64,000 nt of DNA from Euglena gracilis (GCA_039621445.1 CP154954.1:9240634-9304633), one strand, 5' to 3'. Shown: positions 5,467 through 64,000, numbered from the stretch's first letter. The notes: generated by a model from the sequence alone, not told the origin. A program made the numbers and translations.

Positions 5467-5923
5467 GAGGCAGGCGGGAGGACGCAGGCGAAGCACACTC
5501 CAGAATGTCCGGAAAACGTACCTCTCACCCCCTCCAAGGAACACTCGGGAGACAATCTAGACGGTCCGAACAGGCGGCGTTCGTTGGGCATGGGGGTACT
5601 CTTTCTGTGGAGATAAGGTATGTGGTGTCAATCTGGATGGTCCGAAATCCCCCTGTTCATTAGGCAAAGGCGTTTATTGGCATGGGGGGGGGAGGTAACA
5701 GAACACCAAAAACAAAACAAAAAAAGAAGGGAAATGACACAGGAAATCCGGGGCAAAAAAGGAAGAAAATTCAAATTAGAAAAACCTTTGGCAGATTCAT
5801 ATTTGGGTGAATTTCTGGTTTATAAAATGGTTTATAAAAAGGTTTACAAAATGGTTTATTAAAAGGTTTTTAAAAAAAAGTCTGCAAAAGACAAATCAAC
5901 AAATAAACGAAAATGGTTGAAAC

Positions 5924-6249
5924 CAGGGCGGTCCTTAAGGAAATAAAAAAAAAAAAACTCCGCTGTCCCAGCACGCTCAGTGAAAAATATACTGGAAAAT
6001 GGGCAAGAAATTTTGGCGTTTTTCAGCGAGAACAGGTCGACATCAGAAAAAAAAAATTGATTCCTGGCACCCTTGGACCATCGTCCATCCACCCAAGTCA
6101 TCAAAAACTGTGTTTTTCGACTGTTAAATTTTTGCACCCGTTCAAGTCCCAGTCTGACCCTTAGCCGGCCCTTTGGCCGAAAGGAGGGGGGGGGGGCGGT
6201 CCTTAAGGAAACCAAAAAAAAACTTTCCTGTCCCTTAAGGACCGCCCTG
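5924..6249. mobile_element. hAT-like MITE
   Basis: 17-bp TIR CAGGGCGGTCCTTAAGG. 8-bp TSD GTTGAAAC/GTCGAAAC (7/8). The interior recurs reverse-complemented at about 10080-10230. Confidence 0.85.
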
Positions 6250-8139
6250 GTCGAAACTTGTCAACAGTGGCTGCCTTCCATCACAACACACCTCCGAAGA
6301 AGGGCCCTGGGAGGCAGAGCGGGAGATGGTCAGCCCCTCCTCTGTCTGTGTCGCTGCAGGGCTGCAGGGCAGGCTCGAACGCCACCCGACAAATCAGAAA
6401 TCATGACAGAGATGGGACAGACATCACAAAGGCGGAACCCTCAGGTGGTCATTTTCCAGTACGCCCCCCCCCGCCCACCGACCAGGTTCCTGCAACCCCT
6501 GGTCATATAACCCCCCCCTAATAAGTGCGCAGTGCCCTAATAAGTGCGCAGTGCCCTAATAAGTGTGCACCCCCCAAGGGTCCGAAACTACCTCCCTAAA
6601 AAGTGCGCACCCCCCAACGGAGAAATCACTGTCATATCTCAGGTCGGAAAGCACACACAATTCTCAGAACTGTCCTTCTCAGACCAAATATTTCTATCGT
6701 CCAAGCCCAAATTTGACACATTTGTCACATAATCACTTGACCCATAGCTTGAAATCACAAAATTAGGGGGGAAATTGAAAAAGAGTGGGGGTAATGTCAG
6801 TATTATTGGTTTTGCCCTAAAAAGTGCACACTGCCCTAATAAGTGCGCATCCCTTGGGGTCCGAAACTACGTCCTTAAAATGCGCGCACCCGTGCACTTT
6901 TTGGGGGGGTTACATCCCATGAGGGGTCATACACACCCCCTGCCAGGATGAGGGTGGGGATGGTCGACCCCAGCCACCCACCAGCCACAGGTATCCGGAT
7001 TGCAACCCTGAACACAATCAAGGCCCTTAAGTGAATTAAAGCATGTGCTGGGACGCTGTTGTTCCAGCACATTCAATGGATAATCCACCAGAAAATGGGG
7101 ACCAACTCGAAGTTTCTCAGCGAAAAAAATGGCATGCTTGGAAATGAATTGTGCCCAGCCTGAAAATGAAGTGCAGAAAAACGCATTTTTTGATGGTTTG
7201 GCGATCTTGCTGTGTGTGCAGTGGGTTTGGCCTCATTTTTGTGTTCCTCTATCAGAATTCTTTTCTGGCGAATGAGACCAAACTTTTCATCAATTTTTTT
7301 TATTTTTGAATTTGGCTGACCGGTGAATTCCCAAATATAAAAAAAATTAAATAGAGGCTCCACACCAATGTTGCATAATGCAAACACGGACTTTTTTGGT
7401 CCAGATTCGCCGAACCGACCCCAAGTGAAAAAAGCGACCTCTCCATGGGGGACCTCCAGCTTTGGAAATGCTCGGCCATCAACAGTGCCAGAAATTTCAC
7501 AAAAAAAAAGACATAAATGAGTGCCTTCAGTGAGTTTGACTTTCATTGCAGTTATAAAATGACCTCCTCAAAGGCAATTAAATAGAAATGCAAACTGTTT
7601 TGAAAAAAAGGTTGGAAACCTTTGCTCATAATCCACGGTGAAGGCACCATTGGTCAGTCATGTGCTCCAGATATGGAATTTTCAGCATGGCCACTTCTCT
7701 TTCAGAAAGCAATGAAAGACAAAACCCCCTGCTGCCACAAACTGCAGTCACAATTCCCACAGAAGAATAAGGCCGAGGGATTCGGTGGCACCTCAATTCG
7801 AACCCACAGCGGCTGACATCGGCTGCCTCCCTGGTCGATATCACACCCGAGCCCCAAACATAACGGGATGAGGATGTATATAAAAGAAGGTGGCACAATT
7901 TTTTTCATTCATGGAACCTTCAAACGTGATCAGTTTATCTTTGTGAAGTATGGAACGTTGATTTGGGACTGACTAGGCATTTCTTCTGCAAAATACACAT
8001 TTTAAATGGGCAGCAGTTTCTGATGGGTCAAAATGGAAAACGCATATGCAAACAAATTATTTGTTTTTGCACCCTGGTTACCATGGCCTGTTTTTACCGT
8101 GGTGGGTTCGGAGTGGAGGTCTGCTGGGGGCAAATTCGA

Positions 8140-9950
8140 TATAGACAAAGCCGCTTCTGCACCCGCTCCACAGCCCCCCCCCCGCTGACCAACCCCCCCC
8201 CCAAAGCAAGAGGCCACCAACATTCCCAGGCCGCATCAAGGGGGTCGGCGATGGGGTCTTGTGACATGGCAGGTACCTCCCACCCGCAAGCAGGGCCCCC
8301 CCCCAGGTGGTTTTGGGGCCCCAATTGCCGGACCAAGAAACTCGTGGGGGCGTCAGTGCTTTTAAAGATGGGGGCGGTAGTCTTAACCGCCCACACCCCC
8401 CCACAGGTCCAATGCCAAGGCATAAACTCAATAACCCGCCACAAAAGATCGAACTTCTTGTAAACCAGCGAGTCAGAGCCGCCTGCCGAGACCGCAACCC
8501 GTCTCCCGGGGAGCGCCGCCCCACAGGAAAAAGAAAGACAGCACCCCCAGGGAGCTACACGAAACGAGTCTGAAGTGGGGTCCCAGGATCCAGTGCAGGT
8601 ACATTTGTGGGGCCGCAGTGCCGTAACCACGCCCCACCCCGCGGCGGAAGGGGGACGAGGGAGGATTGGGGCAAAAGGCTTTGCAAGAAGGGAGGGGAAA
8701 AAGGGTTGGCCCGTGTATTGAGTGGGGCTGACTCCCCCACAGCCCAGAGGGGAAAGCTGGGAACGCACGGTAAGCGGGAGAGGAGTAGTGAGAGTAAAGG
8801 CCATGGGTCGACAACGGAGGGGTACCGGGTTATTTGCAGGACTTGAAATGAGGTTGAGATGTGTCAACAAGCTCCGAGGGGGGGGGGGGGGGGGCGGGGG
8901 GGCGCCGGGGCCGCAAGGTTTCAAAAGAATTATGGTTCGTTTGAAATTTGTCCTTTCGCAATGGGCCTGCCCGGTACCCCACCTTCCTCGTTTGACAATA
9001 AAATAGAATCTTGGGGTTTGTTTATGGTCAAGGGAATTTGACGCTAGACTGGGGATGAGTGGGGGTCGAACTGTGGGGTGCCTGTGTTTTTAGGCTCCCC
9101 CGGCCACGGCACATATGAATTCTTCCACTCTGATTCGCAACCTGGAGATACATCTGGGTGCCCCCCCCCCCACATTCCTCACTTCCAAAATCCTTGGATT
9201 TTCCTTTGCTGTCCCCACCAGGCTTCTTTTTACCAACTCCGGGGGGGCGGGGAGGGGGTCTTGTGCAATGGGGTACCTCCCACAGCAGGCACCCCCCCCC
9301 CCGGTCGGTTTTGGGCCCCATTGCCTGCCGACCAAAGTGGTGGCCAATATTCGCTTAAAAATGAAATCTTCGGGCCCCGGCATCTTCGGCACCGGGGGTA
9401 GTACCACCCGCCCAAAATCCGCCCACCCCCCCCCTCATAATGCCAACCCAAGGCACCAACCTCTCTGGGGGGGGAGCGAACTTCTTGTAAAAGAAGTGGT
9501 CACCTCCCAGGGTTTGGTGCTCGGCCACCAGCCACCCGTCTCCCGGGCCGCCGCCCCACAGACCGCCGGCACAGGGGACGGGGCTGCCGTGCCGCCGCCC
9601 CCGCCGGAAACGGAGAGACCGACCCTGGGGGAGACGGAGGCGGCTTGCTGCTGGACGGGCACAGTGTTGTTGGCCCGTGTATTTGTGGGCGCCGCAGTCC
9701 TCCCCCCCCCCCTCAGCCCAGGGGGAGGAAGCTTGGGGCCAATTTCGCACGGTAAGAATCCCGCCGAGCGATGAGCAAAATGTGCTGAAAGGCCGAAAAA
9801 TGGGTCGGAAGTAAAGGCCAGAGACAACTGTATAGGGCAAATTTGCATGTGAGGAGGAGTGTGTCCAAGCTCGGGGGGGGGGGGGGGATGCCGCGAGGGC
9901 ATCTTTGAAAAATTGAGAATATGGTTCGTTTCAAAAATATTTTAGAAGAT
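8140..9950. repeat. Diverged tandem copies of a roughly 1-kb repeat
   Basis: 8140-8525 resembles 9150-9560, and 8706-8950 resembles 9669-9940 (shared GTTGGCCCGTGTATT, GCACGGTAAG, TATGGTTCGTTT, GAACTTCTTGTAAA). Confidence 0.65.
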
Positions 9951-10439
9951 GTTTCGAGTTTTGATATTGATATTCTCCTTCACACGGGTGCACATACAAA
10001 AGACAAAAACAGTGGCCTTGAATCTTTCCTGTTTTGCTGGTGAAGGTGAATTTGAATCCTTTGGGGAGAAAAAATATTTCGGCCAAAGGGCCGGCTAAGG
10101 GTCAGACTGGGACTTGAACGGGTGCAAAAATTAAACAGTCGAAAAACACAGTTTTTGATGATTTGGGTGGATGGACGATGGTCCAAGGGTGCCAGGCATC
10201 ATTTTTTTTTCTGATGTCGACCTGTTCTCACTAAAATGTAGTGTATGCTGCCCACAGCTAAACCCAACATTCCTGCGGCCAGAGACAAGCCAAAATTGTC
10301 TTCCACACACCATGCCGATCCCCGACCCGGGGAAAGAACTTCCTTTCAAAGAAGTCTGCCGACGTGTCAAATGTCAAATTTGCAATTCGGCCACTTTGCA
10401 GAATGGCCGTGGGGGGGGGGGCGTGCACCAACCCACCAC

Positions 10440-13400: not shown

Positions 13401-16400
13401 AATGTGCCGGTATTCCTATTTTCCAATTTCTAGAAAACGAGGTAGTTGGAACATGCTGAAAAAAGATCTTTTCATTCCTTCCCTTTCCTGGTCTCCCTGT
13501 ATTTACCATGCTTGAGACAACAACAAAAACAACTGAAGCTTCTGGACACTGCAGCGGGCTGCTGACAAGGCACCCAACCCACTTGGGGACACCATGACTC
13601 AAAAAAAAAGAAATATCTGCAACCTCCTAGCCCAACCTCACCCCCGGCAGAACGAGCCATGCAGCTGAGAGGTCACACCGCCCACCTGAGAGGGACTAAA
13701 AGCGACCACAACTGCTTCTTGGGGACAGGCATCCGGGGGGGGGGGACTTGGGGCACCAAATGAAGGTCAAGCAACACTGTGAAGAACAGTGCTTATGAGA
13801 AAAATATAATTCACTGCTAATTTGTCCATGTCATCATAATTTCTGCTGCTGTGCTGCTGGTGGTGGTGGTGGTAATGTTGGCGGCAGGTGTTGGCGGTTG
13901 GCGGCGGACATCGGTGGAAGGTGCCCCCCCAACTCATTCTCACGAGTCATTTTAAAACAAACCATAGCGGGTGAATGCCTGGAAACAATCCGCAAAACGG
14001 TTGAGATGCCACAGGACATTGGCTTGACGGTGTGTACATAGGTATATACAGGCGATGGTGTCGCGGCCGGTGTGCCGGCAGCCCATTTGGACAGAGGGGA
14101 GAGGCAGGCCATTACCACGTCCACTATTGAGCTGACAGGCATTGGGATGGAAAAGTCAACCATATGTCACCAAATCAGGCTTCGGAAGTTTCCAAAATAT
14201 CAAAAATTCAAAACACACATAAGATAATTCCAACTTGAGCCACCTTTAAAAAAGATGTGTGAGGACCGGGGGGGGTGGCTCTTGGACAAAGGGGGGAGGT
14301 AAGAACTCCATGATATGAAGCAAACAAGATTAACACAAATGGCCACTTTCCATACCATTATTCTTCGCCTCGCTTCGCGTTGGTATTCTGCCCATTCAGC
14401 TGAAAGAATCAAATCTTTGTACCTTTTTTTTGCACAAAATCCCATCAAACATTTCTCCTCCTTGCTTCCCACACTTCTTTCGGTGCAACTGTTTCTTCAA
14501 AACTTGAGCTCCTTTTGCACCTCCTTCCAGCACCTGCGTTCATTCTTTTGCATTTCATTTCTTGTGTGGAACCCTTTCAAGGAATGCCGGTTGGAATCAC
14601 TGCTGACTTTCCAGTGGACTCTCTTCCACCTGCCAATCGGGAATTCGGTCAGATCTTGGCTACCTTGCCTGGTTTCCAGCTGGTGGGTTCCACGAACAAA
14701 CAGCAAAACGAAAGGGAAAAAAAGGCCCGTGCTTGTGGTGTGCGCTCCTGCTGGCAAAGGAGCCACCGCCCGGCCCACGAAAAGGCACACGGGGCCATTT
14801 CCCCCCGCGGCCATCGCGCAGTCCGCCGTCACACACGGCCCCAGGGCTGAACGGGAACGCCAGGGGGGGGGATTGTCGACGCCCCACAAGGTGGATGGGG
14901 GGGACCCTTGTGAGCAGAAAAGTGGCTGCGTGCCAAGCTGGGCAAGGGAAGGGCGGCAAGGTTGTACGGGGGGGGGGGACCAAAATTTTCCTCCCTGGCA
15001 CTTCTTGCTGCAGGACATATGGACTTTTCCCCCCGAGCCCTTCAAAGATAGCCGTCGAATTCACGAGTTCAAAGCCCCCAAAATTTTCAAACGATTTTGT
15101 GCTGGCGGTGGCCTTGGCTGAGCCCCCCCCCCAGGAGTTCCCCCTCAGTTGCACTCACGCTTCTTGTCTGTTCATGGCCGGCGCTAAATTCGCTTCTGGC
15201 CCAGTTTGCTGTGTCGTGTGGTCCCTTCAATTGCCCCCCCCCCCCCGGGCCACCTTCAATTGTGGTCTGGGGGGTGCCCTGACGGGGGTGCAGGCGCCAA
15301 AGGACAATTTTGATTTTAGGTAAAAAGAAATGGGGGGACAGGATGGGAAGGTGGGGAGTGTCAGGCCGCCCCGCACCCACACCTGTCTCCTCCCCGGGTT
15401 GTCGACTCCGACGTGACAGGTCCGCCGGCGCCATCCGGGTTGGCCACCGCCCGGCCAGCCCCGGTCGGCCCCGCCGTTGCTATGTACGGGCCGGGGTGTA
15501 CGCGGGGGGCGCTACCCTGCGGCAGCGCCGTCGACGTCCCAGTCGGCTGGCCCAGCAGGGGCGGCGGTGGGGCCCCGGGCGGGTTGGGGGGAGGGGGCAG
15601 GCAGACCAGGTACCCCCCCCTTGTCGTACGACCGGGTTCCTGCAACCTGTGACCGGGGGGGGGGGGTCATAACACCCCCATAACCTGCAACCTGTGACCG
15701 GGGGGTGGTCGTAAATGAGGGGTGGTCGTACGACTAGGGGGGGGGGGTACCTCCCGCACACCCCCCCCCTGTTGCACTGGGGCTTCTTGTCCGTTCATGG
15801 CCGGCGCCAACTTGGCTTCCGGCCCAGTTTGCGGTGTGCCCTGAAATGGGCACAAATTGGCCGAAAAATGGCCGTAACTCGGGCTAAACGAAGAGTTGGG
15901 GGAAAAGGAAACCATGGTTGGATAGGGCATTCCAAGGGCTTCATTTTTGCTTTCCGGACATTTTCTTTGATTTTGCTTCACTGTCAAGACATTTTGGAAA
16001 AACTGATTTTTTTGACCCAAAAACGGCCCAAAAAACGGTGAGTGGCCAGGCCTTACACCAGTGCTCTTGTGTTGCTCCCCCTGGCCGGGGGAGCAACTCA
16101 GGTGGAATTCCAGCGCTGTGGGGACATGCACTCACCTTGCGTGGTTGGTGTGGTTCCCGTGGGTGGGTCAACACCCTTGCCTTCGCCCCCCCCCCCCCAG
16201 CGCTGGACCCGGGGGCTGAAGGTAATGATTGGCATGACTGAAAGGAAAGGCCGAGGGGACCACTTTAGGGGGCCAAGTGTGTGTGCATGGTAAGATTAAA
16301 TAAAGATAAAATAAAAATTATAAAATATAAAATGAAGATAAGTAAAAAATTCTTGACATGCGCACTTGGAGGGCCGTGCGCAAAACAAGCCAGAAACCTT

Positions 16401-22400: not shown

Positions 22401-24170
22401 CCTGAGTCCACAGGCCTGGGGCAGTCCATAACAGGTGGTCTTCGCTGAAAAGAAAAGGCAAACATCCCCCTTGGACTGCTCTGGTTTGCACGGGTGGCAA
22501 CCACCAATCCTGGACTCACAGGAAGGGTTTCCATTCGCCCCCCCAACCTCAGGGCTAACCAACAGACACGTCGGGAAGCCCACCGCCAGGACGTGTCACC
22601 GCCTGTTGTTCGGGGGACCAGGACGGAGAGGTGTAGGCCCGACCTAGGGCGGGGGGAACAGCGAGGGGTCCGCCGCACCCCCATCGCTGAGGTCCCCACG
22701 AAGTGGAGCGCGGGCAGAACCCCCCGGGGGGGGGGGGGACGCCATTCTTAATTACCAAACGTGAAGTAGTGGTCATACCAATTGTAGTAATGCCAAGAAA
22801 TAGCACCAATGAGCCAGAGCGGGATAGCAGGCACTATGACAGTGCTGTGTCTCAAGTTGCAAAGTAGCCACCAACCATTCCCCCACTTAGAATCCCCCTT
22901 CGCACCCTTCGTCTGACCAACCCAGAGCCTATGTGTCCGTTCCCACACGCATCTACAGAAGAAAATAGCGGGTTGCAGCTGGGGGTGAAATAAAAGAGGT
23001 GAACACCAGGATGATATTGATATCTGATATCAATCTAATATTGGGGGTCCACTGTCAAACTTGTAGGCATACACATGAAGAAAAAAAACACAGCAATCTC
23101 TCACCAAATCAGGCTCAAGAGCTCCTACCAGGCTTCTTTTTAAGACCCCCGGGGGGGGGTCCCCCCCCACCCACCCAGGGTGGCGCGAGACCCCCCCCCC
23201 GGGGGGGACCCCCCAAAATCGGGCCCGTTAAAGGCAATTTTCAAAAAATTTCGGCGCTTAGCCGAAAATATACCCAGCGCCTCCGGCGTGGGACCCCCCC
23301 CCCGGGGGGGTCCGGCCCGGACCCACCCACCCACCCCCCCCCCGGGGGGGTCTCCTGACTTGAAAAGAAGCCTGGCTCCGACGTTGTCTGAATTTTCGAC
23401 ACATATCACGAAAGCACACACATACACACACAAAAGGCTCTCCGAGAAGATGACCTTTAAAAGAAAAACGGTAGGGGGGAGTTGTGTGGACCGGGGGGGA
23501 GACTAATCGGAGGGGTCAAAACTCTGCAGCCCCTCCCCAGCGCAACCTTACGACCTCAGCGCGCTCAGCAATGGCGGGGCCAAAGTTGCAGTGGGGGAGG
23601 GTGGGGGAGCCCCGTCTCAGGGACTCCGTGTCGAGGGGGGGGGTCGCCTGCGCTGCATGCTGCCGCAGCCAGGGCGCCGCTGACGAGGACCCACTCCAGA
23701 AGCTGGGCCGGCGGAAAGGCAACTGGCGGGGGTTTGCTGTTCTCCGGTTTGAATCTGGGTGGGAGCTCCCCGGTCAGCCATTCACCTGCGACGCCTCATC
23801 TTTCTTTTTTGAAAGCTGTCCCGCGTCTTCATTTGGCTTTAGCGTTTTAACATTCCGGGCTGCTGGCAATTCCGTTTCCCGTGGGTTTCAGCATTTGCCG
23901 AGTGAAACCCTGAATGAAAACAACGAGCTGTGAAGAGACTCGTCGTCTCAAATGATGTCGGGGCATAATGTCCTTGAGATTTAATTCTATAATTTGATTT
24001 GATTCAATTCGGTAAATTCGGCCCCAAAGGAACGGTGTGCTTTGGTGCTCTGGCGGCCGGATGAAGCCGCCGATGCTCAGGCGCCGCCCTGGCCCCGGAC
24101 GGAGGGGGTGGAGGTGGTGGTTGTCAGGGGACTCCAGCCTCGCCGCGGTTATAACGGAAGGGAATAGCGC
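10440..24170 (-). CDS. Scattered candidate low-complexity exons (possibly the C-terminal part of the hydrolase gene or the N-terminal part of the EF-hand gene)
   Basis: GC-rich islands such as 23640-23720 (PFRRPSFWSGSSSAAPWLRQH), 20130-20260, 15400-15560, 14050-14160 (FSIPMPVSSIVDVVMACLSPLSKW), 13840-13930, 12800-13000 and 10460-10550. No homology recognised and junctions not verified. Confidence 0.3.
15611..15749. mobile_element. TA-flanked MITE (Tc1/mariner-like)
   Basis: TA-CCCCCCCCTTGTCGTACGACC ... GGTCGTACGACTAGGGGGG-TA. Partial copies at about 56808-56915 and 6460-6520. Confidence 0.7.
18788..19042. repeat. (CA)n/(CACACG)n microsatellite
   Basis: Direct inspection. Confidence 0.95.
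20545..20786. mobile_element. TA-flanked MITE with internal tandem repeats
   Basis: TA-C(n)GGGAAACTGTCA ... TGACAGTTTCCCG(n)-TA with repeated CTGACAGGTTGGCCGGTACCGGGGACC units. Another copy at 38182-38351 and a partial one at about 63910-64000. Confidence 0.75.
23129..23374. mobile_element. hAT-like MITE
   Basis: TIR CAGGCTTCTTTT/AAAAGAAGCCTG. TSD GCTCCTAC/GCTCCGAC (7/8). Confidence 0.8.
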
Positions 24171-25543: not shown

Positions 25544-28500
25544 GGACGAGGGGGTTCCCCGGCTCCTGTACGCTGTCGCTGGCCCCGTGCGCGAAGGTCA
25601 GCACGAGGTCCACCAAGTGGGCAAGCCGGGGGCAGCAGGGGCGACTGCCAACTCCCCCAGGGACCCTGATAGGTTCGCCAGACCTGGCGACACTGACAGC
25701 ATCCCTGGCACCAAGCACCTATGACAGACTCCAAATTTTAGCCCGCGGTCGGCTGCGGTCGGCTGCGGTCGGCTGCGGTCGGCAAAATAGTCGGCCGTAG
25801 GTGGGGGGCAAAAATGGTTAAAATGGCCAAAAGTGGGCAAAAGAGGCCAAAGAAAAGCTGTTTTGGCCACTGTTTTTGCGACTCCAGAAGCTGCACCTGG
25901 CGCAAAATAGTCAAAAATGATCAAAATGGACCAAAAAGTTACCAAAAGCAGGCAAAAATAACAAAAAAAAATTCCCAAAGTGGTCCAAAAAAAGCCAAAA
26001 ATGTCCCAAAATGGCCCTGCTTTTGGCCAATTTTGGTCACTTTAGCAGCTTTTTTTTTGTTCACTTTTGGCAACAAACTGGCATAAAATGCTCAAAAATG
26101 GTCAAATTGGACCAAAAAGAGACCAAAAAAATGGGCAAAAAAAAACACAAAAAAAGGTCGAAAATGGCTTTAAATGGTCAAAAATAGCCCAAAATGGCCC
26201 AAGAGCAGGACAAAACAAAAGCAAAAAAAAAAAAAAAACAAAAAAGAAAACAAAATGAAAAAAAAAAAAAAAAACAGAAAAAAAAAAAAAAGAACCTAAT
26301 CACTGACAAGCCAATGCGGTGGCAACCCATCCAGTCCTGATCAGGATACACAAAAAAAAAACAAAAAAAAATCCAAAAGATCGAAAAATGTAAAAAAAAA
26401 AAAAAAAAAAAAAGCAAACAACCCTATCACAAAAAGTGCAATCAATTAAAAAACCCCACAAAAGTTACAACACTTCTGTTCGTCACTGCGGGATTGGGCC
26501 ACCAACTCAAAAATCCCCTCGGTCCCAAAAACTTGACACCCCCACACCCCATCACATCCCCCCCCAGCTCATTAAATGTAAAACAAAAAAAAAAAACAAA
26601 AAAATGATAAGTGGCCAAAAAAGTGGAAAAATGTCAAAATAGGCAAAACGATGTTATGGTGACAATGGGCCAAAGTGGGACAAAAGCGACCTACAATTGG
26701 CCAAAGGGCCTGCCAAAAGTACACATGATCAGATTGCAGCCAGAAAAAATTCAAAATCTGGGATAAAAATGAGCCTAATTCCTCATTCTCACTGAAAAAG
26801 TGGCATCAATTAAAAAAAAGTAGCGCGGTCGGCTGCAGTCGGCTGCGGTCGGCTGTGGTCGGCAACCCACCTATGACAGTCCTGAAACCTGCGGTCGGCC
26901 GCGGTCGGCTGCGGTCGGTTGCGGTCGGCATAGGTGCTTGCCTGGCACCCCCACCAGATGGCCATTTCAACATACGTTCATCCTCCGGGAGGGTAAACAC
27001 GCAAAACAAAAAAAATGCTGATTTTTGCACTAAATATGCGAAGTATGCAGAAAAAGGTGTAGTCAAAACGGCCAGTGTCCCTCCTCTCCCGAGGACACAG
27101 GGGGGGGGATGTGCGGAGCGCATATTCCTCCAACCAACGTTTCCAACCTGCCCTCACTGAAAGTTGTCAGGATCCGCAACAAGGCCAAGGTGCCGACGAT
27201 GGCAGCAGGCAGTTTCTGTTCGTCACTCAAGGGGATTAATGGCCACTCAGCCGCTCACGAAATCCGTTGTTTGAATGCCCCAAATGACACCAGCACTTTC
27301 ACTGAATCGTTCGGTCAAAGGGCCCGGCTTACCGACCACTGGAAAAACTGGGCTGGCAGGAAAAATATTGCTGGCTGACCCCCCCCCATCTCCCCATTGG
27401 GGTTCCCCGGCTGGAACTAGACCCGACTTGGGGTCGAACCGGATACCAAGGTTTGGAAACTGCAAATGCTCTAAAAAACTGCCAATTGTGTAAAAATCTT
27501 TTTTTGACCCAAAATTTGCTAACATAAGCCCTTTACACCCATTTTCTCAGATTTTCTTCAGATTTGGCCTACTTTTGCCCCCCGAAAGCCAAAATTCCGT
27601 TACCCAAAATAAATAAAGCTCGTTGATGCGGGGGGAGGGGGTCCGAGGCTGGCAAAAGGCTGCAAACTGGATGGACCCCCCCAACTAAACTTCCTTTAGC
27701 ACACCCTAATCCAGTCTAAATATATATCAAAATAAGGAGCAGAAGACGTCCAGTACATTGCTTGAATTGTCTTGAATGAAACAAGAAGTAGAGTAATCAC
27801 AGGAAAGCTATCAAATATTTCTCTCATTTCAAATTTCAATTTTCTCTGGATCATTATTTATTTACACAAATGTGGCTTTTCCCTTTGAATCAAGGTGTTG
27901 AAAGAGCAACCCGTGCGCACCCCGCCCCTCCACCCATGACACGGCACCCAGAACACCGAGGCGGCCCACGCTGGCCGCGGATGGGCGAAGATGTCACCCC
28001 CGCAGCCGTCCAACACGCACGTCTGGGCGTTGGGGATGGCTTGGGCTACCCGCAGGCCCATGTTGTGGGCGGCGCCGCGGCACAGGCGGGAGGGGGTGAT
28101 GGCCTCCCGAGCGACATTGGGCGGCAACCATCACCGGCGCTGTACAGGAAGACCTGGAGGGGGGTGGGACCCCCCCCCTAGAATATCGGGATTCCCATAC
28201 CGCCCTGACCATGACAGCCCCCGACGGTGGCTGTCATGGGTGTCACGCGTGGGGGTGGATGGAGGTGGGGGGGTGGGGGGGGTGTCAGGTGGGGATAGGG
28301 TCCAGACCGTCCCATTGCTTACCGACCCCCCCCCGACGGGGGGGGAAGGAGGGGATCGCTTACACTTTCAAAAAGTTTCACTTTCAGGAAAAAAAATCAG
28401 AAAATCTGTCACTTTTCAAAAACCTGTGACCCATTCCTATCATTCCCATCATTCCCCCCCCCACTCCCCCCCGAACCTACCCCCCCCCCGGGTGCCTGAT

Positions 28501-34500: not shown

Positions 34501-34573
34501 GTGTGGGGCAGGTCGTGCTAGTGTGCACACACTATCACCGCAGCCCATGAGCTAACATGGGCTTTGGGGCTAT

Positions 34574-34614
<41 letters not shown>

Positions 34615-34711
34615 TATATATATATATACATATATATAGTATATATATATATATATATATATTATATAATAAATATATATATATATAGATATATAACATA
34701 TATATATAGAT

Positions 34712-34745
<34 letters not shown>

Positions 34746-35500
34746 AATATATATATATATATATAATATATAGGGTATGTATTATATATTATAATTTATC
34801 CTATTATATATATTATATATATTATATATTATATATAATATATAATATATACAAAAACCTTTTTGGAACACCATGCATAATGATTATATAATAATATGTC
34901 ATATAATTATACAATAATATATATAATAACATACATCACCAGGTGGTGAGGGGTGTTTTCCGCACAAGTGCTTTCCCGAGGCCAGCCCAGCGCAGAGACG
35001 ACGCTGAGGGGCATGAACACGTGCGTGATCATGCTGGGGAGCTGCCGGTGTGCAGCGGGCAGTGAAGCTGGAAGTCCCCGAGGGGCAAATGCAACGTTGA
35101 AAACTGGTGGGAGAACACATCCGCCAGGGGGGACAAAAAACAACAAAAATGGAGAAAAAAACCGAGGACGCACAGTAAGCGAATAATCAAGGGAAACCGG
35201 GGGAAATGAAAACAGAAAACCACGTGTGTGCCTATCCCCCCCCACCGTAACACACATCTCACCCCCCAGACCCCCGGCGGCCCTCTGGCCAACCCTGGAG
35301 CAGGTGGCGCAGTAGGAGGTGAGGGTTGAGCGCGCCCTTCAGTGGCTGGAGAAGCGCTCTCTGGCACAGGGTGGGGAGGTCGATGCTTGGCATGGGTCTT
35401 GGGTCTGCGGCGGCAGGGAAGGCGAGAATGGGCAAATAATAATATGCATTTGTTTGGTCGGTCCTGGTCGTCTGTCGAGCTCTTCCTGAGCATCGCAGGC
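25544..35500 (-). CDS. Alpha/beta hydrolase, ABHD13/ABHD17/BEM46-like, multi-exon
   Basis: Exons: ~34040-33945 (LWRFQRRLIFAPPP), ~33497-33440, ~32412-32355 (PTVVYFHGDGEQLGW), 31920-31900 (TARVITA), 31140-31088 (AWRRGCGFLAVEFPGYG), 30437-30254 (GTPSEANCY...VILVGHSLGCGVA), 29943-29820 (VLISPFTS...DKFDN), 29237-~29185 (PTCVIHSKSDVQVP), ~28070-27977 (HNMGLRVAQAIPNA), 25627-~25544. These give the family motifs FHG, EYPGYG-like, GxSLG (30302-30316), SPFTS and the IHxxxDxxVP acid motif. The start (possible exons at 34980-35090 and 35300-35500) and the end are uncertain. Confidence 0.85.
25712..26940. mobile_element. hAT-like non-autonomous element, same TIR family as 56515-56669
   Basis: TIR CAAGCACCTATG/CATAGGTGCTTG. 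Perfect 8-bp TSD CCTGGCAC at 25704-25711 and 26941-26948. Subterminal (GCGGTCGGCT)n repeats and an A-rich interior. Nested in a hydrolase intron. Confidence 0.9.
31989..32100. mobile_element. TA-flanked MITE
   Basis: Inverted ends of about 30 bp: TACCTC(n)TTGTCGTTGACACG / CGTGTCAACGACAAG(n)AGGTA. Confidence 0.7.
34571..34930. repeat. (TA)n AT-rich microsatellite
   Basis: Direct inspection. Confidence 0.95.
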
Positions 35501-36478: not shown

Positions 36479-36524
<46 letters not shown>

Positions 36525-36758: not shown

Positions 36759-36824
<66 letters not shown>

Positions 36825-40900: not shown

Positions 40901-40948
40901 TGGGATTGTGGGCTGAGGAGTAAGAGGCTGCCAATTGAAATAAATAGA

Positions 40949-40991
<43 letters not shown>

Positions 40992-43900
40992 ATACAGAGA
41001 TACATAAATAAATACATAAATAAATAAATAAATAAATAAATAAACAAACAAATAAAAAATGAGAAAATGAATGAATGAATGAATGAATGAATGAATGAAT
41101 GAATGAATGAATGAATGAATGAATGAATGAATGAATGAATGAATGAATGAATAAAAATTAATAAAAACAATTGAAATAAAATACATAAATAAATAAATAA
41201 ATAAAAAAATAAGAATAAAAAAAAAATAATAAATAAATAATAAAAAAATAAAAATAATAAATAATAATAAATAAATAAAAATAAACAAATAAACAAATAA
41301 ATAAATAAATAAATAAATAATAAATACATACATACATACATAAATAAAATCTTGATTTTCACTAACAGGTCTAAAAGAAAAGGGGGCACCTTGCCGCCTT
41401 TTCGCTGGCCCATCACCGTGGCCCGCACCGTGTAGTCCCGCCAGATGGGGCAGGCATTGGCAGGGGAACGCCACCCCACAGTGGGACACTGTCGGGCATA
41501 TGTGGAAACGATGCGGCTGGATACACGCACACACACGCACACGCACATACACACACGCGCGCGCGTGCACACACACATAACAGTTCATCTCCATTTGGTA
41601 CCTGACCAAATTTTTCTGAGTTTGCAGATGGCACTCCAACATGAATTCTGGGTCAGCTTGGGACGTTTTTGGCATTTTGGTCCTGTGTTCGACCAAATTG
41701 CAAGTCTCCATCTTGCAACAATGCCAACAACAGTTGCTTCGTGCACTTTTACTCCACATTTTCTCACACAATCCTGCATAATTACAGCATAACCCAGCAT
41801 AACTTCGAAGAAGAAAAAAAAACTGAATCCCCCCGGAAAAGAACTGAAGTCTTCTCTTTTTTCTCCTATCGCGGCATTCTTGCCCACACGAAATCATTGC
41901 CATGCTTTCAAATTTATTTCGGTCCTCCTTCGAAACGGCATTGCAGTTTGTGACGCGCATGGAAAACGCCGCAGCCGAACTAAATGGATGTCAACTTGGT
42001 TTGCGGTGACACCCTTCCTGGCAGGACATCAGGGAACCGCAACACTGCTGATATGATATTTTAGGATTATTTTTGCACAATGGATGCTGCTTTTGATTGT
42101 TACTCTCAGCAAATTTCATGGATTTTTGTGATTTTCCCAAAGTTTCCTGGTGAATTCTCTTCTTGGTTTTCTTTGGCCCCCTGTGTTGCCATCTGGGTTG
42201 TCAAAGTTGGTCCTCGGAGGCATTCATTATGGGCAGGTTATTGTTATTGTTTGTGGGGTGCTTATCCCAACACTTCATCGGAGGCAAACACATGTCCCTT
42301 CAACCTGGGATCGTCCCCCCCCCCAAAATTAGACCGTCCAAAATACTAATTTTTTAACAAAAAAGCCAAAAAAAACGGACTTACCAGGTAGGGTTTATCT
42401 TTGTAGCCCCCTGGGGTCCCACTAGTAAAACCAGGGGTCCCTCTTCTGAAAATGCCCAAAACTGGTCCGTTTCGTCATTTTGGGAAATTTTTTTTAGACC
42501 AATTTCATTCGTATTTGATCAAGTCATTTTGGGACGATAAAAATAGGGCCCCGGTGAAAGCACTTTTGGGGTCAATTTGAGTCTGAAAATTATGCAGGAT
42601 TGTGCGGGATTATGCAATCCGAATTTTTCACCATATGATGCCAAATTATAACTGGTGAGAAAAATATTTAAATTTTCACAAACCGTCTTCTGAAATGGAA
42701 AACAACTGTCTCAAATGCGTATAGGCATAGGCATTCTTCTTGTTGCATTTTCCGCCAAAAAAGCAAAATATGCCTAGAAAAGGAAAGGGATTTTGCCGTC
42801 CGCATTCTTCGTGCCCCGTTCATTTTCATAAAACCTCCTTATTCTATCCAGTTCAAAGCACTGCATGGAAAAAAAAACACAAACAATAAGTATGGGAGAG
42901 TGGTTCGGAAATCCCTTCTACTGTGATAAGCGACTGATAAGGTACTATTATCCGGGGTCCCAGACAAGTTTTGTGCAAATTACCAGTGGCACCTCCACAA
43001 ACACGTGCATTTGGTTGAGGTGGGGGACCATCGGCACAGGAATCAGGGTTCCCTGTTGTGAATGACGGACAAATCAAACGACAGATTCAGGCGCAGCCAT
43101 GCAGTCCAAAGCCTGAATAGACTTCACGTCACCCTTGCGGCGCCGGACGTTGCCGCTCGTATCGACCTTCCGGGCCCGAAGCTGCTTCGGAACTTTCTTC
43201 TTCGAGCCTCCACCAGGGCCCAGTGCTTGGAACCCAATCACTCAACATGGCCGTGGGCCAACACACAGGCACACCATGACATTTAGACCAACCAACTGGA
43301 GTGAAAGGAAGGAGGTGCATCCCGCCGAGGGGTGTCAGGCCAGATGTCACCCCCCAGAGGGTCAACCTCGACTGTTCAAAAAAAAATCAAACATCGGTGC
43401 GCTGACCTCCACCTGCCCCAGTGCAAATATATGTGCGTGTGCACGCACCACGCAGGCATGCAGGCACACGCGCGTGCGAACACACACATTGGGCCTTGGC
43501 TGTGGGTCTTACGGGCCCTCTTGGTGCTCTTTCCCATGGTGTGATGGGATATGCAGTAGGGGACGGGGGCGACGGCGACAGCTGTGGAACGGAAGACAGT
43601 TTGGCTTGAGAATTCTGCTTTCACTTCACCCCCCTCCCTATGTCCAACGACCAGTAACCTGTGGCTGTGGGGGTGGTCGTTGGACATAGGGTTGTGGCCA
43701 AAAAGATTTCCTCTGACCGGGCGGTGGTCGTTGGACAAGGAGTCAAAAAAAAGTTTGAGGATCCCTGGGACCCTCCCCCCCCCAAAAGGTCAAATTTTCC
43801 TTCCGGTACTTTGCGCCCCGAAAAAATTGGGCAATTTTGGCAATCTCTTGCCCAAAAGTGCCAAAAATGGCATTTTGGCCAATTTTTTTTGCCATTTTTG

Positions 43901-46440: not shown

Positions 46441-46821
46441 GAGGTGGGGGGGGGGGTCGGACTCCCGTCCACTGGTCCAGGGGGTGACAACCTTCCTCCT
46501 AAACAAGGTGAGCGATTTCTGGCACGGCACGGGAAAAAAAATGCCTCCCAAAATTGGTGAAGAATTCCTTTTGGGCGCTTTTTTGGGCAAATCCTTGTCA
46601 AAAATGCAAAGAAATTCTCGATTCAAAGGGAAATTTTGACCCTTTTGGGGGCTTTGGGTATCCCGGAAATCAGTTCGGGGACCCCCTCTTACTGTACACC
46701 CTTCTTATATCGAAGCCTGGGCAGGGGGCTCGGCAGGGGCGGGGGGGCCCGGGGACGGCTGCCTTGGCGGGGTGGGGGGTTCGGCAGGGGCCGGCACAGC
46801 GAGGGCAGAGGCCAGCACAAA

Positions 46822-47492
<671 letters not shown>

Positions 47493-47819
47493 CTCTGCTG
47501 TGTTTTGTATTGTGTGTTGCGTTGTGGCTTGTGTGGTGGGCACGTGGGTGAAAACGTGCATGTAGACCAACGCTGCACACGGTTGGCTGCAGGTTGGTGG
47601 GTTGAGAATCCAACAAACAGCCTCATTTTTTCTGTTTTTGTGCAGACTGTTTTCTGTTCTGCGCAGGCAGATGGACAGATGGAAAGCATGGGGAAAAATA
47701 CTACCGACGTGGTGAAAAGGCAAGACAATTCATCCAGGAGCCTTGACCAAAACCACAGATGAACCTCAAGCTTTGCCAGTTATGTTGCTACCATGAGCCA
47801 CAATGTTTGGGGTCCCGCC

Positions 47820-50800
47820 CTCACGTTGCCCAGAATGGGAGGCCCCTGGAGGGCAGCAGCGGAGCTTGGCTCCGGAGAGGGCGCTGGCTTGGCTGGGGTG
47901 GAAGCAGCTGAAGCGGCCGCCGGCACAGGGCTGCGACGCGCCACGACTGACGCCAGCGAAGACGGTGCCAAATTGAACCTTCTTTGAACTTTGTTCTTGT
48001 GCAAATTAAAAAGGTTAGTTTTTTAAGTAATTTAAATTGAGCAAAAAAAAGTGGATTAAAGAGTGTTGGTTTGCCAAATTTGGTCCTTTGGGTCCAGTTG
48101 CACTCCCCAAATCCGGCTGCCTGCAGCTGCCAGGGGGAGTCATCCTGCCTGTCTACGTTTGCCAGCCGGCGTTTCCAGCCAGCCGGCAACGTCTCAGTGG
48201 GCTTTCCTTGCTGAATGTGTCAAGTGCTTTGCCGGACGATTTTCTCAGGCAAACTCTGGGGCAGGTGGCTTGTGAGGGCAAATGCTGCCCCCACCAGGAA
48301 GAAAGGTGGCTTCGAAATCCTGACTGATCATCCATTTCGTGCGAGACGAAGAAGCCCGGTGTGTGTTTGTTTTGTATTATGTTTTGGATCGGGCCGAATG
48401 ACTCCATTTTTATTCTCATTTGTACCTCTTCGATGAAAAAAAAAAGCTGGAGAAAAGGCATCCCTGTGGCTGAAGCGTGGTTGGGGGCCTGGCTGGACCC
48501 TTCGTCGGAGCTCCCGCGGGAGGCGGGCGCCGCATCGTCGGAAGGCCCGGGAGCAGCATGCGGGAGGTCCGCAGTGACTGGCACCACGGCGGCCGCAACT
48601 GTCGCCACAGACTGGGGGGAGGGGGCCACAGCGGCTGGGGTGGGCTGCGGTGGTGCTGGCGCCACCGGCAGGTTGGTTCCCGTGGCATGCATGGCAGTGC
48701 ATGACACGCATGACCCACGAACCTGAGGCAACACTCCCCACAGTAGGCAAGGTAGGAAAGGTCCCAGCGAAGGAACGTTCGAGTGCTTTGGGCCCCGCAG
48801 CACCGAAAGAGAATGTCTGTCAGAATATTTAGTGGTTGGCGCCAAAGGTATGAGCAAAGAGGTATCTGGGCGTGACCGTCACACAGTGGAGCGAGGGCGG
48901 TCCTCTCGCTGCTGCTAATGATGCCAGCAGCAATAACACGTCGCACAAAACTCATTGGAGTGTGATGGGCTTCATTTGGCATCAATAAAATTTCACCATT
49001 TGTCAAGATTGTCCTCTAGGTTTTTTTGACGTCCTATTTCACCACACACCATCCTCCAGAAGCGCCCAAGTTGATGAGGAAAATGGTCCAAAGCGTAGTT
49101 TCAGGGACAATTTTTAGACACTTGGGCGGAAATAATTTATGTCCTCCCTCCCCAATCATCCAGTTCCTCCATGACTCATCCTGCACAAGCACCCACAGCC
49201 ATTCAGTGGGTGGTTGGCAAACCTTCGGTGCCAACCACGGACCACTGTGGCGACAATTGTTCCTTTTCCGCGCTGCGAAGCCCAAATCTGGCGAACATGC
49301 CTTCGCTTTTCCATGGTGCTGAGGTCTGGCCCAAATGTGCCATGTGCCTCCCCAAACCCACACACAAACACCCCACCCCAACCCCCACAGCGCACAGAAC
49401 CGACCCGGTCGGGTGAGACATTGGGGCTTCGTGCGGCGGGGGCGCCGGCGGGTCGGGGGGCGGTGTGGGGGCCCGGGGTTGGGCCACCGCGGTGTTGGCC
49501 TGTGGGGCGGAGGCGGGCTGGAGCTGGGGCTGGGGCTGGGGCTGGGGCTGGGCCAGCGGCAGGTGGGACGGCGGCGGCGCAGAGGGGGGTTTCGGGCAGA
49601 CATATATACCATATATATATATGTACCATATAAGCGTATATACATATGTATACATAATGACCATTATAACAATGAAAAAAAATTGGTGTTCACTTTTCGG
49701 GCCAGGGCCATTGCTTCGGACGAAAAAAAAGACATTTTTGGGGATAAATGAATTCTTCAGAAGAACAGAACCTCCGAAACCAACTGGAACTCCACCTGAG
49801 GGGAGTTCTGATCAGGAGTGCTCCGGCACTTTTGGCCGTCTCAACCGGGGGGGGGGGTTGATCTGGGTGCCTGCAGTGCCTTCCCAGGCAGGCACCCTCC
49901 CATCCCCACCCGGGTTGGGGTAAAATTCTCGCCGTGGAACTCAGCCTGGATGGGGGAGGGCGGTGGGCGGCAGTGCTGTCCGATGCGGCCCGAAGCGGGG
50001 CAACACCTAAACCCGCCCCCCCCCCCCAAATAACCTTGGGCCCTTGCTCCTGGCGGGGGCCGAATAACTTGGCGGGGGGAGGGGCAAAAAAGATGGTTCC
50101 AGTAACCTGGCACCCCCCTTTTTAGGCAAAATTCCTTTATGGTGCTGAAAAAAGGGCCCAAATAACCTGGCGGGGGGCAGGGCCAAAAGTTGGTTCAAAT
50201 AACCTGGCACCCCACCAGGTTATTTGGGGTGGTTTAAGCCCCTTTGTAGTGCTTCTCACTTCCAGTGAAAACTGAAGGGGGGGCAAAACCCCACCTACGG
50301 TCGACATGGGGATGGGTGAGAGTAGTGGGGGGGTCACTGTGTTTTCCATTCTGGTGAAATGAATGATATGGTTCCGCTGGCATCTTTGGTCGAAGAAATC
50401 ACAGTGCAAAATGCCCGGCAAACTTTTGCATGACTCAAAGCGGAAGAAAGCACCCCATTTTTGGGGGGGTTTCCGACATCGGTGCATACTGCAAAGAGGG
50501 GCGAATGGACTTGGAGTTTACCGTTGCAGCGATGAGCTGCGGGTCTGGAGATGGTGGACAGGCATCCAATTTTTTGATACAGCCGCGTTAATGCACTCCC
50601 TCGCGTCAACATTTGCCAACTTTGCCACAAAGAACTGGAAAATTACTGATTAGTTACTAGTTCGTCAATGCCGATGTAGTTACCAGTTCGTCAATATGTG
50701 CGATGGTCTTGCCCCCCAGGGTGGAGTCCCGGGGGACCCATCCAATTTTGTCCAAAAAAAGGCCAAAAAAGCTAAAAATAGCACCTTTTTCAAAAGTTTC

Positions 50801-52105: not shown

Positions 52106-52207
52106 CCGAGAATAACAGGGGGGAAGGTCACATAAATTGTACAAAAAATTATTGAGCACACACAGACACACGTATGTTCATGTATATGTGCACACACATG
52201 TGTGTAT

Positions 52208-52495
52208 CATGCTTGTGCTTACCAACCGGGGGGGGGAGGGGGGGTGGGTGCCTGCCCCTAGCAGGCACACCCCCCAGGGGGGGATAGGGGTCCAGGGGGG
52301 ACCCAGAAAATTTTCATTGAGAATGGCCTTTTCCGGGCCCCCGGCGCCTTCGGCGCCGGGGTCGGAGGGGGGTGCCTGCTAGGGGCAGGCACCCCCCAAA
52401 ACCCTACCCCCCAGGGGGGGGGAGCGGATCGGGTGCTATGGGGTGCCTGCCCCTAGCACCCCCGTGGGGTAGGCACCCGACTAAGCACAAGCCTG
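52208..52495. mobile_element. hAT-like MITE
   Basis: TIR CATGCTTGTGCTTA/TAAGCACAAGCCTG. Perfect TSD GTGTGTAT at 52200-52207 and 52496-52503. Confidence 0.85.
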
Positions 52496-53130
52496 GTGTG
52501 TATATTGATGTATTACCAACAAACTGCCTGCGGCATCTTAAATGAACAGTTTGTGTTCTTGCTCACACACACACACACAAACAAATATATGTGTGTGTGT
52601 ATATATACATATATATGTATGTATATGTGTGTGTACATATCCATATACATATGCATGCACATATATACATATATATAGATAGATACATATATACATATAT
52701 ATACATATATATACATATATATATATGTATTGCATGAAACCAAAGTTCAATAGATGCATTGGGTACGCCCGTGGAAGCTCCAAGCATGTCAGGGTGGGCA
52801 TCAAAGAATCATCAAGCACTTTTCAGACCCTAACGCGAAAGTCCCAAATTCAAATGTTGGAGAAGCTAATCCCAAAAGTATTTTTATTCAATTATTTATC
52901 CTTTTATTTTTACTATTTATTTTTATCCCAGAATCATACATCTTTAAAGAAGTAGTTTTCAATAAGAATAGTTTTCAATAAGAAGACTTTCAAATTTGGG
53001 TGAATTATAGTCAGCATTGGATACAGGTGGGATATTACTTTTCGGAGGACACGTTAGAGAGTACACGGTCGGAGGAAGATTTACCCGGAGGACAGTATGA
53101 CAAAATACCTTCCAAGGAAACTGCTGTTTT

Positions 53131-53423
53131 GAGCGCGCGAGCGCACACAGCACACAGCACACACACACACACACACACACTCATTCACGCACGCACGCGC
53201 ACACACACACACACACACACGCACGCACGCACACACACACACACACAGCACACACACACACACACGCACGCACGCACACACACACACACACAGCACACAC
53301 AGCACACACACACACACACACACAGCACGCACACACCCGCACGCGCGCACACGCACGCACGCACGCACGCATGCACACACGCTAGCATGCACATACACAC
53401 GCACACACACACACACACACACA
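53131..53423. repeat. (CA)n/(CACG)n microsatellite
   Basis: Direct inspection. Confidence 0.95.
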
Positions 53424-53530
53424 CCAATACAACCCAGAACCGCCAAAACTCGTTGGAAGACAGAGAGCCAGAACAGAGAACACAAGGTGCAAGGCAATTT
53501 CCCAAGGAGGGCAGAGGCAATGTCCTGGTG

Positions 53531-63415
<9,885 letters not shown>

Positions 63416-63511
63416 GGGAACAGGCCCGACAGTTCCCGAAACACAGCTTCCCACCAGACCCCTCCGCTTCGCTGATCTCCAGAACTTCTGAAATACCGAC
63501 AGGGTCTGGCA

Positions 63512-63691
63512 AATACCATTGATCACCGACCTGTCACTTTCCACCAGCAAGTGGCTTTTCAAAAACCAGTCACCCACTTCCTCCCCCCCCCAGGAGGGTT
63601 GGTTGCTTTGAACACTCAGGAGGGGGGTTCAGAGCCAAAGCCAGACAGTCACCCCTCGGGTGGGCTCGGGCATACCTTAAGAAATGGTATG
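63512..63691. mobile_element. hAT-like MITE, same family as 61037-61383
   Basis: Ends AATACCATT/AATGGTATG. Perfect TSD GTCTGGCA at 63504-63511 and 63692-63699. Confidence 0.8.
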
Positions 63692-64000
63692 GTCTGGCAG
63701 GGTTCAACATGGGGCACTAACTTGCTTATTTGAAATGCAACCTCCCACAAAAGCCTCCCTGGCCAAGATCTACCCACTCCCCCTGTGACAAGTTGGCATC
63801 CAAGATTGCGCCTGCCAACATGGGTGACAAACTGGCATACAAAGTGGTAAAGTGTTGAGGGCCGAAACAATTGTGGATGAGAGAGCATGGATGAACAGGC
63901 GAACCGATGTAAACTGTCCCACTGACAGGTTGGCTGGTACTGGGAACCCGGACGACTTCCTATCATGACAGGTTGGCCAGTGCCAAGGACCCTGAAAGTT

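Follow-up and report, generated by a model that had tools for sequence, protein, structure and literature searches.

The stretch of DNA described here, a 64,000-bp window of the Euglena gracilis nuclear genome (GCA_039621445.1, CP154954.1:9240634-9304633), carries 29 introns defined here in five minus-strand genes (A to E) and eight short elements that resemble MITEs (miniature inverted-repeat transposable elements), with terminal inverted repeats (TIRs) and target site duplications (TSDs). Its G+C content is 44–56% across 4-kb windows, and no prokaryote-style gene structure was found across it. Most of the introns are of the euglenid nonconventional type, which is removed independently of the spliceosome and released as circular RNA (PMC11282704) and which makes up ~70% of the introns in E. 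agilis (PMC12501133). An earlier note, made from the sequence of this window, had pointed out that the 3 and 5 unpaired nt on either side of the intron stem add up to the 8-bp TSD of the elements, and had suggested that the whole intron class may be fossil MITEs of the hAT superfamily. We found one MITE that is skipped in RNA together with 8 further nt, a second intron that looks like a decayed MITE, and a modest excess of repeat identity at the junctions of other introns.

The introns were defined using RNA contigs and transcript-derived proteins. Contigs of three runs (low-share runs, taken as RNA) and the raw reads of one RNA-seq run were placed on positions 53430-64000, and at least 14 RNA joints among those listed outline genes A and B. 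For the other three genes, exon translations match EG_transcript_20395 (98%), EG_transcript_7280 (85%) and EG_transcript_28770 (98%); at these junctions all protein-compatible placements were listed and the choice was made by stem pairing alone, never by repeat identity. Intron D1 is less certain, because only the first two exons of an 85% paralog lie in the window. Twenty-six of the 29 introns are nonconventional, with borders other than GT-AG, and the remaining three are GT-AG introns. A stem running from +4 to −6, with spacers of 3 nt and 5 nt that sum to 8, is present in 23 of the 26, and in all 23 the downstream exon opens with a purine. The exact CAG/CTG pair begins the stem in 13 of these 23, and the others start with CTG/CAG, CGG/CCG, CAC/GTG, GAG/CTC, GGG/CCC, CGC/GCG, CCG/CGG or CAA/TTG, or have one mismatch. 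The geometry described in the earlier note therefore holds with three exceptions (C1, C4 and E2; Table 1), which have clear CAG..CTG stems all the same. The intron borders that it had given were also found independently, as joints in RNA contigs for A1, A3 and B7 and by mapping of the transcript-derived protein for C10.

Each of the eight elements was found where it had been placed before, including M8, whose left end has decayed to AAT in place of CAT. All have CA..TG-type ends, TIRs of 12–19 bp and an 8-bp TSD that directly abuts the TIRs, perfect in five elements and matching at 7/8 positions in three. When the ends were aligned, M1, M2, M4, M5, M7 and M8, together with a partial copy at 30481, showed a common layout of CA, 8 variable bases, CTTAAG at positions 11-16 and then a C-run/G-run palindrome. 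M3 and M6 make up another family. Both have CAAGCACCTATG as their TIR, and short repeated motifs that contain GGTC lie inside them; the short repeated subterminal motifs of these two were noticed by eye. This makes at least two families of MITEs, or non-autonomous DNA transposons, in the window. As a test for a special role of 8 bp, 1710 inverted-repeat pairs, mostly chance pairs, were scanned for perfect flanking repeats, which numbered 1 at a length of 7, 3 at 8, and 0 at both 9 and 10.

The element that bears most directly on the origin of the introns is M6, which sits in a coding exon of gene B. A joint in RNA connects 56502 to 56666 and skips 163 nt, the 155 bp of M6 plus 8. It is carried by contigs of three runs from three studies (depth 100, 113 and 39) and by one raw RNA-seq read, and the skip falls within the 268-codon coding frame of gene B, which is open across 11 junctions. 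Because the 4 bases preceding the TSD equal the last 4 of the element, the junction slides over 12 nt, and the 3+5 register (GGA, then CAAG...CTTG, then CCGCC, before an exonic G) is one of 13 equivalent placements. The 12-bp TIR stem is present in the minimum-free-energy fold. M6 is a transposed copy rather than a local duplication, given that its relative M3, which has the same TIR, occurs at another site and is flanked there by a perfect TSD of its own. We regard M6 as a candidate for an intron caught "in the act", while noting that the joint could reflect an empty allele instead of splicing.

Intron C3 appears to represent a later stage. At its start, CACCGGTTTGCTTAAC is succeeded by GAC and then by a C-run/G-run, and its other end is the inverted counterpart. 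Alignment of the ends showed that it fits the terminal layout of the CTTAAG family, and a small search matched 38 nt of its 5′ end to the right end of M7 (79% identity, E 7e-5). The 5/8 match between its junction 8-mers is as expected for an old insertion, and from its sequence C3 looks like a second, older, decayed MITE-like intron. Neither C3 nor the M6 intron has a GT-AG placement.

If the remaining introns once were such insertions, remnants of the TSD would be expected at their junctions. For each intron, the 8-mer made of the last 5 exon nt and first 3 intron nt was compared with that made of the last 5 intron nt and first 3 exon nt, and the null model permuted the pairing of 8-mers among introns. 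Permutation keeps the position-specific composition, so the shared pyrimidine/purine junction consensus is already allowed for. The identities quoted in the earlier note (6/8 for A3 and C10, 5/8 for B7 and A1) were reproduced. With M6 excluded, 80 of 176 positions were identical across 22 introns compared with 67.3±5.3 on permutation (p=0.012). The corresponding values are 75 of 160 against 59.8±5.0 for 20 introns (p=0.002), before D1 and E1 are added, and 43 of 104 against 35.4±3.8 for the 13 RNA-defined introns. Identity of at least 5/8 was seen in 7/22 introns, compared with 13.6% of mismatched pairs (p=0.023). Four neighbouring 8-nt windows gave no excess in the same permutation test (p=0.98, 0.34, 0.30 and 0.82), and sliding the register by ±1 to 8 in the 20 introns reduced the matches to 30–63 from 75 at shift 0, so the excess is confined to the predicted 8-nt register. 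We conclude that a pair-specific excess in this register is real but modest. Identity of the 8-mers also rises with intron length among the 22 nonconventional introns (rho 0.50, p 0.019), which was unexpected.

On this evidence we think it fairly probable that MITEs with 8-bp TSDs, removed through the 3+5 rule, gave rise to nonconventional introns; that the elements are hAT, which way causation runs between TSD length and the geometry of the machinery, and that the whole class is included are things we infer. Under such a scheme, a transposase, probably hAT-like, would insert a MITE into a transcribed exon through a staggered target cut of 8 bp, as the TSDs suggest. In the pre-mRNA the paired TIRs, which for M6 form a stem on folding, would be recognised as the terminal stem by the machinery for nonconventional introns. 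This machinery, non-spliceosomal according to the literature, would cut 3 nt upstream and 5 nt downstream of the stem, before a purine, a cut rule that is based on published experiments and on 23/26 introns here. The cut would take out the element and one TSD equivalent, so that 5 nt from one copy of the TSD abut 3 nt from the second and the target is restored. Since 3+5 equals the length of the TSD, the element plus exactly one TSD equivalent would be removed and the frame that preceded the insertion restored. Judging by C3 and by the 8-mer excess, later decay of the intronic TSD halves and of the element interior would leave an ordinary CAG..CTG intron, while selection would retain the spacer lengths and the initial pairs of the stem.

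Several results weigh against this scheme and are best considered together with its alternatives. It could be that M6 is not spliced at all and is a recent insertion in one allele or strain only, with the RNA contigs coming from the empty allele. Among those listed, no contig or read crosses the exon/M6 border unspliced, and an empty allele or strain polymorphism would therefore give an identical joint; rare variants are lost from Logan contigs. M6 has the perfect TSD and TIR of a recent insertion, its retention would shorten just the C-terminal end of the protein, and its stem start, CAA..TTG, falls outside the published CDG..CH'G code (PMC12501133). Yet the same joint is present in contigs from three studies and in a raw read, the exon pieces of the joint-bearing contigs (56416-56502 X1, 56426-56502 X2, 56666-56740 X3) contain 0 other letters, and M6 has a stem of 12 bp, can be placed in the 3+5 register and leaves a purine as the first base of the downstream exon. 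In C3, moreover, an element of this kind appears as a fixed intron whose TSD copies have diverged, and we consider an unspliced M6 quite improbable. A broader alternative is that 3+5=8 is a filter or a coincidence and carries no information on origin. The machinery would then measure by a structural ruler of its own, and MITEs with 8-bp TSDs would be nothing more than insertions that it can excise cleanly, so that a few become introns. Most nonconventional introns would have another origin, such as the repair of double-strand breaks, reverse splicing of circular intron RNA or a change from conventional introns. A fixed 8-nt repeat abutting inverted repeats is not what double-strand-break repair predicts, although the authors of a study on a young gapC intron did ascribe its 8-nt repeat to such repair (PMC4770533). 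Introns do include members of repeated TIR/TSD families, as M6 and C3 show, yet seven of the eight MITEs are not themselves introns, and at least four of those seven, along with the partial copy, are nested inside introns. The junction excess is restricted to the predicted window, but it is small: ~13 extra matches over 22 introns (~0.6 nt per intron), with p=0.034 for the 13 introns defined by RNA alone. The raw identity of 45% is mostly shared junction consensus, the permuted expectation already being 38%. The correlation with stem perfection suggested earlier is absent, as TSD identity and TIR quality are unrelated in the 22 introns (rho 0.05, p 0.82). Simple decay predicts such a correlation and its absence argues against it; the stems, however, are under selection for splicing. 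Spacer sums of 9, 9 and 7 in 3/26 introns, and the finding that a 6-nt 3′ spacer works in experiments (PMC12501133), also fit a ruler that is not tied to the TSD. We give this explanation some weight but find it doubtful.

Whether the elements are hAT is a separate matter, and the assignment, although the structural marks are hAT-like, is unproven. An 8-bp TSD and the terminal motif YARNG are typical of hAT (PMC3014272). All eight elements have the 8-bp TSD, 15 of the 16 ends start with YA and 11 with YAR. In the TSDs, position 2 is T or position 7 is A in 10/16 cases (binomial p=0.0016 against 0.25, in a small sample), matching the target preference nTnnnnAn of Hermes (PMC10368747), which we count in favour of hAT. 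With their short YA-starting TIRs and the repeated subterminal motifs of M3 and M6, the elements resemble hAT MITEs, from which they differ in the conserved CTTAAG and in showing full YARNG at only 4/16 ends. With this partial fit the support for hAT is weak, and the Pfam search of 10 long open reading frames (ORFs) in the window returned no hAT transposase domain, just retroelement RNase H. Both points leave room for mobilisation by another superfamily that also makes 8-bp TSDs, such as P or Merlin, and Merlin families with 8-bp TSDs have been reported from E. gracilis (PMC8101967). Merlin TIRs, however, end in a conserved 5′-GG (PMC8101967), found at 0/16 ends here, where the elements end in 5′-CA, and the target bias and YA starts also argue for hAT. 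We find mobilisation by another superfamily plausible while rating it as somewhat less than probable. The CAT starts among the ends of M5, M7 and M8 presumably resemble those of P elements, and we know of no described hAT family with CTTAAG conserved at TIR positions 11-16. The suggestion that the intron class consists of fossil hAT MITEs is thus partly supported: M6, C3 and the modest 8-mer excess favour a MITE origin, while the size of that excess does not carry it to the whole class and the YARNG and transposase results leave hAT weakly supported.

The general idea is not new. In 2014, at a time when euglenids had no known transposons, insertion of MITE-like elements was put forward as the source of these introns (PMC3935182), and this idea was taken up again in PMC11282704 and PMC12501133. 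A 2024 review already refers to the CAG/CTG pair at +4-6/−8 to −6 as a "TIR" and to the junction repeats as "TSD-like" (PMC11282704), and a strain-specific gapC intron, recently gained and bearing direct repeats of 8 nt, was reported in 2016 (PMC4770533). What has thus been published before covers a MITE origin, TSD-like repeats at junctions and, at a young intron, a repeat of 8 nt, and the hAT/8-bp reading and the exonic MITE are the new details relative to the searchable literature. In that literature, which covers few subscription journals and no supplements, hAT or an 8-bp TSD equal to 3+5 was not found tied to these introns, and the word hAT was absent from the Euglena intron and genome papers searched; a hAT-like word match in a diplonemid paper (PMC12621601) turned out to be an author name. 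The 8-nt signal may already be there in supplements, namely Dataset S7/S8 and the sliding distances of Fig. 1B of PMC12501133 and the junction repeats in Table S3 of PMC4770533.

In their geometry the introns of this window agree with those described by Milanowski et al. (2014, 2016) and Nomura et al. (2025), with non-GT-AG borders in 26/29, the +4/−6 stem with 3- and 5-nt spacers in 23/26, a downstream purine in 23/23 and direct repeats at the junctions. The published splicing code is N3-CDG..CH'G-N5-6/R (Nomura et al. 2025; PMC12501133), the 3-nt and 5-nt spacers are experimentally required, and along with the purine rule at the downstream exon, 84.4% of introns are reported to be "slidable" (PMC12501133). 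What differs here is that the same DNA holds concrete MITE families to which introns can be linked, and that one intron consists of an intact MITE and its 8-bp TSD, with a CAA..TTG stem outside this code. There are also parallels with the introners of Micromonas, Amoebophrya, Polarella and Fritillaria, where a DNA transposon enters a gene and leaves the RNA and the TSD helps to restore the exon exactly (PMC11282704). In contrast to the situation here, Fritillaria introns are removed by the spliceosome and the TSD in Amoebophrya is 3–5 nt as opposed to 8 bp (PMC11282704). In this window a 3+5 rule measured from the stem takes the place of GT-AG, and neither M6 nor C3 obtains GT-AG or spliceosomal borders from the element or its TSD.

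Table 1. Introns and MITE-like elements of the window. The 8-mer identity compares the two junction 8-mers of an intron; for MITEs the TSD copies are given.
Feature	Positions	Strand	Type or length	Stem start, ends or TIR	8-mer identity or TSD	Basis	Remarks
Intron A1	53577-53892	(-)	nonconventional	CAG..CTG	5/8	RNA joint	
Intron A2	53966-54313	(-)	nonconventional	CAG..CTG	3/8	RNA joint	
Intron A3	54365-55019	(-)	nonconventional	CAG..CTG	6/8	RNA joint	
Intron, M6 + 8 nt	56510-56672	(-)	nonconventional, 163 nt	CAA..TTG		RNA joint	3+5 placement
Intron B2	56742-57281	(-)	nonconventional	CAG..CTG	3/8	RNA joint	
Intron B3	57336-57873	(-)	nonconventional	GAG..CTC	4/8	RNA joint	
Intron B4	58003-58406	(-)	nonconventional	GGG..CCC	2/8	RNA joint	
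Intron B5	58451-59075	(-)	nonconventional	CGC..GCG	2/8	RNA joint	
Intron B6	59137-60925	(-)	nonconventional	CAG..CTG	4/8	RNA joint	
Intron B7	60999-61712	(-)	nonconventional	CAG..CTG	5/8	RNA joint	contains M7
Intron B8	61747-62058	(-)	nonconventional	CCG..CGG, 13/14 TIR	3/8	RNA joint	
Intron B9	62134-62730	(-)	nonconventional	CAG..CTG	1/8	RNA joint	
Intron B10	62809-63053	(-)	nonconventional	CAG..CTG	3/8	RNA joint	
Intron B11	63105-63372	(-)	nonconventional	CAG..CTG	2/8	RNA joint	
Intron C1	35047-35290	(-)	nonconventional	CAG..CTG		protein	spacers 3+6 (sum 9)
Intron C2	34035-34988	(-)	nonconventional	CTG..CAG	5/8	protein	
Intron C3	33497-33946	(-)	nonconventional, 450 nt	CACCGGTTTGCTTAAC.. / ..TAAGCGAATCCGTG	5/8	protein	C-run/G-run palindromes
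Intron C4	32398-33428	(-)	nonconventional	CAG..CTG		protein	spacers 3+6 (sum 9)
Intron C5	31131-32320	(-)	nonconventional	CAG..CTG	7/8	protein	
Intron C6	30438-31087	(-)	nonconventional	CAG..CTG	2/8	protein	contains M4-like partial copy
Intron C8	29238-29819	(-)	nonconventional	CAG..CTG	3/8	protein	
Intron C9	28065-29181	(-)	nonconventional	CGG..CCG	4/8	protein	
Intron C10	25628-27976	(-)	nonconventional	CAG..CTG	6/8	protein	contains M3
Intron D1	5427-6312	(-)	nonconventional	CAG..GTG	3/8	paralogous protein, 85% identity	contains M1
Intron E1	43209-43501	(-)	nonconventional	CAA..CTG	2/8	protein	
Intron E2	41447-43118	(-)	nonconventional	CAGGCTTTGG..CCAATGCCTG		protein	spacers sum to 7
Intron	29944-30253	(-)	GT-AG				
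Intron E3	39710-41389	(-)	GT-AG				
Intron E4	38066-39622	(-)	GT-AG				contains M4
MITE M1	5924-6249		326 bp	CTTAAG-type TIR CAGGGCGGTCCTTAAGG	5916-5923/6250-6257, GTTGAAAC/GTCGAAAC, 7/8		nested in intron D1
MITE M2	23129-23374		246 bp	CAGGCTTCTTTT(T/C)AAG	GCTCCTAC/GCTCCGAC, 7/8		
MITE M3	25712-26940		1229 bp	CAAGCACCTATG (as in M6)	CCTGGCAC, 8/8		nested in intron C10
MITE M4	38900-39382		483 bp	CAG(G/A)GGTTTTCTTAAG	ATGGGGAG/ATAGGGAG, 7/8		nested in conventional intron E4
Partial M4-like copy	30481-30798		76% identity over 325 nt	left end CAGGGATTTTCTTAAAG			nested in intron C6
MITE M5	52208-52495		288 bp	CA(T/G)GCTTGTGCTTA	GTGTGTAT, 8/8		
MITE M6	56515-56669		155 bp	CAAGCACCTATG, 12 bp	TCCGGCGG, 8/8		in coding exon of gene B
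MITE M7	61037-61383		347 bp	CATA(T/C)C(G/A)TTGCTTAA	GGGCGAAC, 8/8		nested in intron B7
MITE M8	63512-63691		180 bp	right TIR CATACCATTTCTTAAG, left end AAT	GTCTGGCA, 8/8		

The genes that host these introns are of several kinds. The 268-codon product of gene B is, as we take it by impression, EHD-like. At 63414-64000 (-), reads and contigs of all four runs diverge from the window at 63414 with an identical continuation, so that one more intron, reaching past the window end and enclosing M8, lies upstream in gene B. Gene C, to which transcript-derived protein P0001 maps in 11 exons from 35393 to 25569 on the minus strand, encodes an alpha/beta hydrolase by its Pfam matches. Protein P0003 maps to gene E in 5 exons from 43537 to 37943, and the paralogous protein P0002 (85% identity) maps to gene D in two exons, its first two, in the window. 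A 282-aa open frame at 3832-4677 (+) with RT_RNaseH (E 8e-16) and RT_RNaseH_2 (E 1e-14) is a fragment of a retroelement of the long terminal repeat type, downstream of two exons of an EF-hand/PIP5K-like paralog.

Other repeats were also observed. The interior of M1 (its positions 98-259) has a copy at 10077-10236 with 95.7% identity, without the TIRs of M1 or any visible TSD. Further CA-N8-YTTAA ends at 11505, 13115, 17256, 25302 and 62263 had no partner end with a TSD, and a generic inverted-repeat scan using 9-mer seeds returned mostly microsatellites and stems and gave no information on elements. A candidate element at 50037-50160 with a "perfect TSD" was rejected, as AATAACCTGG is a locally repeated motif. 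M4 was rejected as an exonic MITE, its position falling within a conventional intron (E4), and the M4-like end at 30481 was rejected as the terminus of intron C6, the protein-defined border being 44 nt off. In intron B2, a short C-run...G-run repeat at 56810-56865 has an RNA contig depth of 1590–2591 in its bin compared with ~100 in neighbouring exons, and many loose contig ends begin at its borders; a related copy, 89% identical, lies at 15611-15708. High depth was also seen in the bins 58725-59077 and 61196-61548 (M7). A skip of 50 nt at 59774-59823, within intron B6 and downstream of a 17-nt tandem repeat (59550-59605), appears in low-depth RNA contigs from three runs and may be a length variant instead of a splice. 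Long microsatellites of (TA)n, (AAAT)n, (GT)n, (TGTGT)n and (CA)n lie at 34571-34851, 40938-41348, 46832-47283, 47369-47526 and 53144-53424; by coordinates, the (TA)n repeat is inside nonconventional intron C2 and the (AAAT)n repeat inside conventional intron E3.

The origin and the removal mechanism of euglenid nonconventional introns have been at issue since the 1990s. This window supplies concrete MITE families and a candidate young intron, and with them the question of origin becomes directly testable. It also offers an arithmetic reason for spacers of 3 and 5 nt, as their sum equals the TSD and excision would be scarless. A bolder proposal, which we regard as unlikely on present evidence, is that the entire euglenid nonconventional class consists of fossil hAT-like MITEs, and that the 3-/5-nt ruler of an RNA "precise excision" system was fixed by the 8-bp stagger of hAT. 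Such a system may use a domesticated transposase-derived nuclease, or another nuclease that measures from the end of a stem, followed by ligation. If this were true, a single transposon superfamily would have shaped both the gene structure of euglenids and their second splicing system.

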